From a virus (taxonomy: Duplodnaviria > Heunggongvirae > Uroviricota > Caudoviricetes), in the IMG/VR virus record IMGVR_UViG_2778261085_000011, positions 1 to 13,532 of that record: a stretch of 13,532 bases of DNA; one strand, 5' to 3'. A program made the translations under genes and the position numbers. Positions within the stretch are counted from its first letter, which is position 1. Each line of letters begins with the position of its first letter. Shown piece by piece: positions 6,606 to 6,806 of the stretch. The notes under the pieces were generated by a model. The model saw only the letters and a list, made by a program, of their open reading frames with translations. It was not told the origin of the DNA and searched no databases.

Positions 6606-6806
6606 TCCCCACCACTCCCCACTTTTGCTCCCCACTTTTTAAATTCCCCACTTGCTCCCCACCTCGTTTTTTGGGTGAATCTAACGCTTTGTTTTTCATT
6701 GTGTTTTTTACTCCCCACTTTTTTGGATGTATACAGGTCGAAAAGTGGGGAATTGTGTTTCAATTTTGTTAAATTCCCCATACTCCCCACTTTTACTCCC
6801 CACTTT
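6606..6806. repeat. Iteron array: about 9 direct and 1 inverted copy of TCCCCAC(TTTT) around an AT-rich spacer; candidate replication origin
   Basis: Direct copies begin at 6606, 6616, 6629, 6645, 6656, 6712, 6784 and 6797, with variant TCCCCAT at 6775 and an inverted copy at 6745-6751. AT-rich stretch 6663-6711. Lies directly 3' of the Rep ATPase stop (6807). Confidence 0.7.

Follow-up and report, generated by a model that had tools for sequence, protein, structure and literature searches.

We propose that positions 6606 to 6806 of a 13,532-bp viral DNA stretch (IMG/VR record IMGVR_UViG_2778261085_000011, positions 1 to 13,532; hereafter, the window) serve a Gram-negative phage-inducible chromosomal island (PICI) as its vegetative origin of replication, a reading to which we assign a probability of roughly 0.85. 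The segment lies directly 3' of a gene for a RepA-family helicase (rep) and is built of short repeats (iterons) set in AT-rich DNA. A preliminary description of this DNA had named it a candidate origin, and the sequence-level evidence (PICI context, the position of published origins, a layout conserved among relatives, co-variation of the repeats with RepA, and the boundaries of an exchanged cassette) supports that designation, as do the enrichment of the repeat, its exact fit to the intergenic gap and a winged-helix model of the RepA C-terminus.

The cluster occupies its intergenic gap completely. Between the TAA that ends rep (6807-6809, minus strand) and the ATG that opens the next gene (6603-6605, minus strand) lie 201 bp whose limits coincide exactly with 6606 and 6806, the coordinates originally given. 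Counting both strands, the heptamer TCCCCAC is present 11 times in the window, as compared with 1.64 +/- 1.30 in dinucleotide-preserving shuffles of the 13.5-kb sequence (11 copies were reached in 0 of 200 shuffles), and 9 of these 11 exact copies fall within 6606-6803. Eight are on the plus strand (starting at 6606, 6616, 6629, 6645, 6656, 6712, 6784 and 6797), the sole minus-strand copy of the cluster occupies 6745-6751, and a tenth copy with one mismatch (TCCCCAT) is located at 6775-6781, which agrees with the earlier count of about ten 7-bp copies in some 200 bp. Most copies share the extended form ACTCCCCACTTTT. When one mismatch was tolerated, the density reached 49.8 copies per kb in the cluster region versus 2.8 per kb elsewhere in the window, where TCCCCAC is found as single matches at chance level and a second cluster is absent.

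The preliminary description had envisaged two blocks around an AT-rich stretch. Repeat blocks do flank AT-rich DNA, but they form three groups (including an inverted pair) separated by two AT-rich spacers. The distal block (6606-6662, plus strand) adjoins the start codon of the next gene and contains five direct TCCCCAC copies; it is followed by spacer 1 (6663-6711), a T-rich and AT-rich stretch (67% A+T, 55% T) that is one candidate unwinding region. The central pair (6712-6751), recovered by inverted-repeat search, consists of a direct and an inverted copy facing each other across GTATAC, namely TCCCCACTTTT (6712-6722), 18 nt that include GTATAC (6729-6734), and AAAAGTGGGGA (6741-6751), while a second inverted copy, present in relatives, is degenerate here (6737-6743). 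Beyond spacer 2 (6752-6774; 83% A+T) lies the proximal block (6775-6803, plus strand) with three direct copies (TCCCCAT at 6775, TCCCCAC at 6784 and 6797), the last of which ends 3 nt short of the rep stop codon and extends its T-tail into it. The G+C fraction amounts to 0.32-0.40 across 6675-6799, as opposed to approximately 0.52 in the flanks. As single-stranded DNA, the central pair folds into an 11-bp stem (-9.5 kcal/mol, z = -3.7); this hairpin exists because two iterons are inverted and is therefore not independent evidence.

Within 6560-6850 we found no DnaA box (allowing up to two mismatches), no GATC cluster and no oriC-like 13-mer, which suggests that initiation is not DnaA-dependent in the manner of Rep_3 plasmids. 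The repeat region contained no terminator-like site on the strand carrying rep and the downstream gene, and gave no Rfam match. One match to the integration host factor (IHF) consensus (6682-6694, minus strand, one mismatch) was at chance level and was discounted.

The adjacent rep gene (6807-8213, minus strand) encodes a 468-aa protein, called 'helicase RepA family protein' in RefSeq, which we read from Pfam and structure matches as a helicase-initiator. Its earlier identification as a RecA-fold replication ATPase was confirmed: Pfam AAA_25 covers residues 146-317 (7263-7778; E = 1e-43), residues 155-319 match the structure of RSF1010 RepA (1g8y, E = 6e-5), and Foldseek searches with the RepA model returned T7 gp4, KaiC and Rad51. 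The domain order is an N-terminal domain (residues 1 to ~125), the RecA-fold ATPase and a predicted C-terminal winged helix. No primase domain was detected in RepA or in the neighbouring window proteins scanned, and an NCBIfam search did not yield an informative name for RepA, for the N-terminal domain by itself or for the 257-aa protein encoded downstream.

As the full-length RepA model was poor and its fold search yielded generic RecA-fold matches only, the C-terminal domain was re-modelled alone (AlphaFold2, AF2; residues 396-468). The resulting model (predicted local distance difference test, pLDDT, 88; predicted template modelling score, pTM, 0.76) has three helices followed by a beta-hairpin (H-H-H-strand-strand), and the top Foldseek matches examined in the PDB were mainly winged-helix DNA-binding domains (DtxR/IdeR, LexA, Fur and the MCM winged helix; probability 0.97-0.99, TM ~0.6-0.7). 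From this model, these matches and the co-segregation described below, we propose residues 405-468 (6810-7001, minus strand) as the iteron reader. The predicted recognition helix and its N-terminal cap span K443-G454 (6852-6887, minus strand); since the third helix is modelled as F445-G454, H444 would sit at the cap, a position from which base contacts are common in winged-helix proteins. On the basis of model and sequence comparison, H444 is thus a candidate specificity residue for the fourth base of the iteron core. Its codon is CAC (6882-6884, minus strand), and a change from His to Asn needs a single nucleotide (CAC to AAC).

Relatives of the rep-repeat region were collected from 12 homologous Escherichia coli loci and 80 loci of other Enterobacterales (92 in total), of which 82 were scored together with the window (83 loci). 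The cassette is widespread: among 5426 complete E. coli genomes, 1359 matched the rep region and 652 the intergenic repeats, and the cassette is also present in an E. coli O157:H7 island and across Enterobacterales. A common layout was recognised in nine representative loci including the window (Escherichia, Xenorhabdus, Pantoea, Pectobacterium, Morganella, Enterobacter, Kosakonia and Acerihabitans). In order of distance from the rep stop codon, two to three direct copies (the proximal block, within approximately 30 nt) are succeeded by an inverted copy or two, the centre TGTATA(T)AC, a single direct copy, a spacer of 50-60 nt with an A/T tract, and three to five direct copies (the distal block, ~137-197 nt from the stop) that precede the next gene. 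The centre and its facing copies are kept from E. coli to Xenorhabdus, Pectobacterium and Enterobacter, and an A/T tract at the position of spacer 1 recurs in distant relatives as well. Additional origin-like units were observed in two loci: in L014 (Xenorhabdus beddingii) an orphan block with GTGGGGA repeats lies ~220-330 nt after the rep stop, directly after the cognate GTGAGGA origin, and in L009 (E. coli ETEC1749) a 478-nt gap (1520-1997) contains two tandem units.

The repeat core varies between loci (on the rep strand: GTGGGGA, GTGAGGA, GTGGGGG(A), GTGCGGC(A) and GTGGGGGC), and each locus has only one core. In the alignment of the 12 E. coli regions, CAC and TTTT are invariant in every repeat, while the variable base switches together in all copies, the inverted ones included (GGTG(G/A)GAAAGTG(G/A)GG). 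The core variant follows the last ~65 residues of RepA and not the remainder of the protein: the L010 RepA is 98% identical to that of the window in the ATPase and 75% in the C-terminal segment, and its repeats read GCCCAC, whereas the L004 RepA is 66% identical in the ATPase and 97% in the C-terminal segment, and its repeats read TCCCCAC. We therefore scored the residue that precedes the aromatic position of the K-x-F-x-R-W motif (444 in the window) against base 4 of GTGNGG in loci with at least three copies. The correspondence held without exception in 79 loci among the 83 analysed: His was paired with G in 16 of 16 loci and Lys with G in 32 of 32, Asn accompanied A (24 of 24), and Ser accompanied C (7 of 7). 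The O157:H7 island obeys the same rule (KNF, CCTCAC), and the switch between His and Asn is seen on different C-terminal backgrounds (L006 versus L007, L005 versus L009, L010 versus L011, and Pantoea versus Xenorhabdus). Asparagine usually prefers adenine, and histidine and lysine guanine. We argue for direct recognition of the repeats by this domain because all copies change in concert, the His/Asn switch recurs across backgrounds, and the chemistry is plausible.

The repeats also travel with rep. The match of many E. coli genomes to the window begins at precisely 6601 and runs through rep only (H5-H9, query position 802), and islands of this type carry the same rep and iterons followed by an unrelated 83-aa gene in place of the downstream one. 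In a sibling island (L093), the integrase and flanking genes are the same and a DUF927-type replication protein replaces RepA; 3' of its gene, in the same slot (7337-7692), are repeats of another kind, GT(T/C)GTCCCA, which number more than ten and occur in both orientations. Since the repeats stay with rep and change with the rep type, rep and repeats are exchanged as one cassette bounded by the next start codon. Protein-mode searches of phages and plasmids returned distant helicase cores or integrated islands only, with the exception of a 17-kb circular Klebsiella record. This record (L094; CP018459.1, Klebsiella pneumoniae, 16,971 bp), deposited as a circular 'plasmid', is actually a capsid-forming island (integrase, capsid, terminase) with an RKSF-type RepA, matching TGCGGC repeats and the same layout. 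The assembly probably caught the island in an excised or episomal state, and as circumstantial evidence its circularity is consistent with episomal replication.

By its gene set, the window is a Gram-negative PICI (a group that includes a capsid-forming variety): the hallmarks integrase, AlpA and unidirectional operon are present and a complete complement of phage structural and lysis genes is not, PerC and a small terminase (terS, by a close relative's annotation only) accompany them, the putative origin is directly 3' of the initiator gene, and its iteron sets flank AT-rich DNA. Megablast of 5800-8300 against the phage collection gave no match; the element is not a known phage.

Several known systems share part of this organization. 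The RepA helicase core is homologous to that of RSF1010/IncQ plasmids (1g8y), whose oriV has direct iterons beside AT-rich DNA, a separate RepC that binds the 20-22 bp iterons, and a dedicated RepB' primase acting at ssiA/ssiB hairpins. Unlike in IncQ, the helicase of the window carries its own predicted DNA-reading domain and each repeat consists of 7 bp and a T-tract, and neither RepC- nor RepB-like families were found among the window proteins scanned. Rep_3/DnaA-dependent plasmids (pSC101, F, P1, R6K) rely on a Rep_3-type initiator, a winged-helix dimer, and combine iterons of 17-22 bp with DnaA boxes next to their AT-rich region; no window protein matched the Rep_3 family, and 6560-6850 lacks a DnaA box. 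In P4, a satellite of enterobacterial phages, the alpha protein unites a primase, a superfamily 3 helicase and a C-terminal winged helix reading repeated octamers, which are split between the loci ori and crr and do not directly follow the 3' end of the alpha gene. The window protein resembles alpha in joining a helicase and a predicted C-terminal winged-helix origin-binding domain, and differs in its RecA-type motor and in having its repeats directly 3' of rep. A comparison of P4 with PICIs was made in PMC6092414.

A close likeness is to the Gram-negative PICIs exemplified by EcCICFT073 (Fillol-Salom et al. 2018, PMC6092414), which share int, alpA, the unidirectional operon and PerC, have their origin 3' of rep, and exchange rep and ori together. 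Their origins lie immediately 3' of rep, with two iteron sets flanking an AT-rich region, and function was demonstrated for EcCICFT073, in which the cloned rep-ori maintained a temperature-sensitive plasmid, rep mutation abolished this ability and ori deletion significantly reduced it (PMC6092414). Unlike EcCICFT073, which has a fused primase-helicase, the window encodes a 468-aa AAA_25 RepA with no detectable primase domain, and its repeats are of the GTGGGGA type. In the pathogenicity islands of Staphylococcus aureus (SaPIs), 6-12 iterons with an AT-rich centre, and oppositely oriented copies to its two sides, are found immediately downstream of rep, and the Rep protein is a self-loading helicase whose C-terminal winged helix was shown biochemically to bind iterons of 5-6 nt (Qiao et al. 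2022, PMC9371898). In position, iterons and AT-rich DNA, the repeat region of the window agrees with the published accounts of both PICI and SaPI origins. The window RepA resembles SaPI Reps as a predicted single-polypeptide initiator-helicase with a C-terminal winged helix and iterons downstream of its gene; unlike these superfamily 3 AAA+ proteins, it has a RecA-type motor akin to RSF1010 RepA and T7 gp4, and hence the likeness is one of architecture, not motor homology, and probably convergent. Origins were not described in the preprint on capsid-forming PICIs.

Position, repeat layout, AT-rich spacers, domain composition and protein-repeat co-variation are read from the sequence itself, and from them, together with the published SaPI and EcCICFT073 experiments, we propose how binding, melting, helicase loading and the use of host enzymes might proceed. 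Induction of the island by a helper phage, followed by AlpA-driven transcription, would yield RepA, which we take to be a hexameric helicase with a RecA fold, related to RSF1010 RepA and equipped with its own origin-recognition module (the C-terminal winged helix). This module would read the 7-bp core GTGGGGA (rep strand) together with the A-tract, with His444 touching the fourth base. RepA, bound through the winged helices of its subunits to the direct arrays as well as the facing copies on both sides of GTATAC, would open the intervening AT-rich DNA and load itself there as the replicative helicase. Synthesis would then be carried out by host primase and DNA polymerase III, which we propose given that no primase domain was detected, and would be aided by the single-stranded DNA-binding protein (SSB) of the island.

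Other functions of the cluster were weighed against that of an origin. The repeats might chiefly control transcription or translation, as an operator bound by RepA or another island protein for the downstream genes (the 257-aa gene, ssb, proQ and perC) or as a ribosome-binding region, and lack an origin function. The first repeat does adjoin the downstream ATG, with GGGGAG, a possible Shine-Dalgarno sequence, ~9 nt upstream of it, and the iterons of many plasmids also serve as operators. However, the promoter scan of 6300-7100 revealed no sigma-70-like promoter on either strand, an operator would need far fewer than the ten or more sites present here, which keep a conserved arrangement of three parts, AT-rich spacers and a facing pair, and the repeats remain with rep where the downstream gene has been swapped; we consider control as the main function improbable, while a side-role in the expression of the downstream gene is conceivable. 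Marginally less probable still is that the repeats are copy-control or incompatibility sites (acting by handcuffing or by RepA titration) and that replication truly starts from another part of the island. In P1, F and R6K, copy control is indeed exerted by iteron arrays that lie beyond the minimal origin, and a second, orphan array accompanies the first in some relatives (L014, L009). Yet the window has no second cluster, its single TCCCCAC matches outside 6606-6806 being at chance level, and for the PICIs examined experimentally it is the array 3' of rep that acts as origin (PMC6092414, PMC9371898).

An island with a small terminase gene (2519-3109, minus strand; assigned by the annotation of one close relative only) needs a packaging site somewhere, and the cluster might be the pac or cos site of its terminase. 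Such sites, though, are normally in or beside terminase genes. Moreover, the repeats co-vary with the C-terminal domain of Rep and not with the terminase, and the same repeats are found both in islands with terS alone and in capsid-forming islands (HNH endonuclease and P27-family terminase), which makes a packaging function very unlikely. The least credible explanation is that the region encodes a small protein, from the 83-aa open reading frame (ORF) at 6602-6853 (minus strand) or the 197-aa ORF at 6387-6980 (plus strand). Both frames are open in the window, and PGAP annotated a 50-aa ORF in the equivalent region of one relative (L009). But no frame is open throughout the 11 homologous E. coli regions, both translations simply mirror the periodicity of the repeat, as had been noted at the outset, and nearly all relatives have no RefSeq annotation in the gap; accordingly, we do not regard either ORF as a gene.

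Some considerations temper our confidence in the origin assignment. Replication or binding experiments on this Rep/iteron family were not found in the literature consulted. The AlphaFold model of full-length RepA (mean pLDDT 64) is of low quality in its ATPase part, and the Foldseek E-values of the C-terminal domain are weak (0.03-0.2), as expected for a small domain. The coding segment of this domain lies less than 250 bp from the repeats, a distance at which linkage alone gives some correlation, and the 83 loci are phylogenetically non-independent, with only about four independent His/Asn contrasts. Any of the AT-rich stretches may be the one that melts, and one or two hexamers may be loaded.

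All genes of the window are on the minus strand and point in one direction. The integrase (12291-13532) and AlpA (11570-11776) were assigned by profile search and annotation. A near-perfect 42-nt palindrome (AAAAACAGTACCCACCGTTTTAAAACGGTACCCACTGTTTTT, 11841-11882) is situated just upstream of alpA and could be an operator for the induction switch of the island. Between alpA and the replication operon, an 805-aa open frame (9148-11565, minus strand) has a low-complexity, junk-like translation, spans a 48-nt direct repeat (9714-9761 and 10500-10547, 786 nt apart) and matches related islands in patches only (Icd-like, YlcI/YnfO and ash genes); it may represent a local duplication or non-coding DNA instead of a gene. 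Rfam placed an isrK Hfq-binding RNA (9500-9576, 80 bits) and a C4 antisense RNA (9391-9478, 76 bits) side by side on the minus strand of this interval, upstream of the replication operon, where relatives carry Icd-like genes.

A DUF4222 gene (8210-8497; Pfam DUF4222, E = 7e-25) overlaps the start of rep, and in annotated relatives it always precedes rep, regardless of the rep type. The N-terminal domain of RepA (7839-8213, minus strand) is confidently modelled as an alpha/beta fold and has no family match; it has been shuffled independently of the ATPase (E. coli RepAs share 43-99% identity in this domain), and in other islands its counterparts at 44-59% identity are the N-termini of replication proteins of the DUF927, P4-family primase and DUF5906 types. 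Given that the RepA-type N-terminal domain is preceded by a DUF4222 gene at every locus whose annotation was read, it may be a shared adaptor.

On the other side of the repeats, the 257-aa gene (5832-6605), whose ATG (6603-6605) is also the RefSeq start in homologues, forms the distal boundary of the rep-ori cassette; its product has no Pfam family. The SSB gene (5410-5835; Pfam SSB, E = 3.5e-16) likely encodes a replication accessory and is followed by genes for a ProQ/FinO protein, a PerC protein, the small terminase subunit, a second PerC and a SocA/Panacea protein. Pfam scans located the two PerC-family paralogues at 4565-4852 and 1660-2031 and the SocA/Panacea antitoxin-domain protein at the left window edge (1-513). 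In E. coli chromosomes, close relatives of the island adjoin a tRNA-Pro gene or lie between gcd and hpt, and some of them carry a full capsid and terminase module.

We thus regard the region as a rep-ori of the known PICI kind, in which the RepA/GTGGGGA variant is new or at least not explicitly described. The motif and the island names are absent from the text of the 2018 PICI paper (PMC6092414), which lists its iteron sequences in a figure, and this iteron family may already be drawn there (Figure 2a). As for the history of the protein, we see about even odds that a helicase of the RSF1010 RepA family gained a C-terminal winged helix and became a one-protein initiator-helicase, in convergence with the Reps that SaPIs and P4 built on a superfamily 3 motor, with specificity lodged largely in one N-cap residue that selects base 4 (His or Lys for G, Asn for A, Ser for C). 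If this is true, changing CAC to AAC together with a concerted change of the approximately ten repeats would create mutually orthogonal origins, and several islands could share one cell without cross-replication.

Recognition of the origin provides a marker for the replication module of these satellites, and explains why recombination boundaries coincide with the stop codon of rep and the start codon that follows. The natural specificity series (GTGGGGA, GTGAGGA, GTGGGGGA and GTGCGGCA) could be used to study DNA reading by a winged helix mounted on a hexameric helicase, or to build orthogonal replicons. The finding leaves the current picture of PICI biology unchanged; its additional value resides in this series and in the correspondence between one residue and one base, both of which are directly testable.

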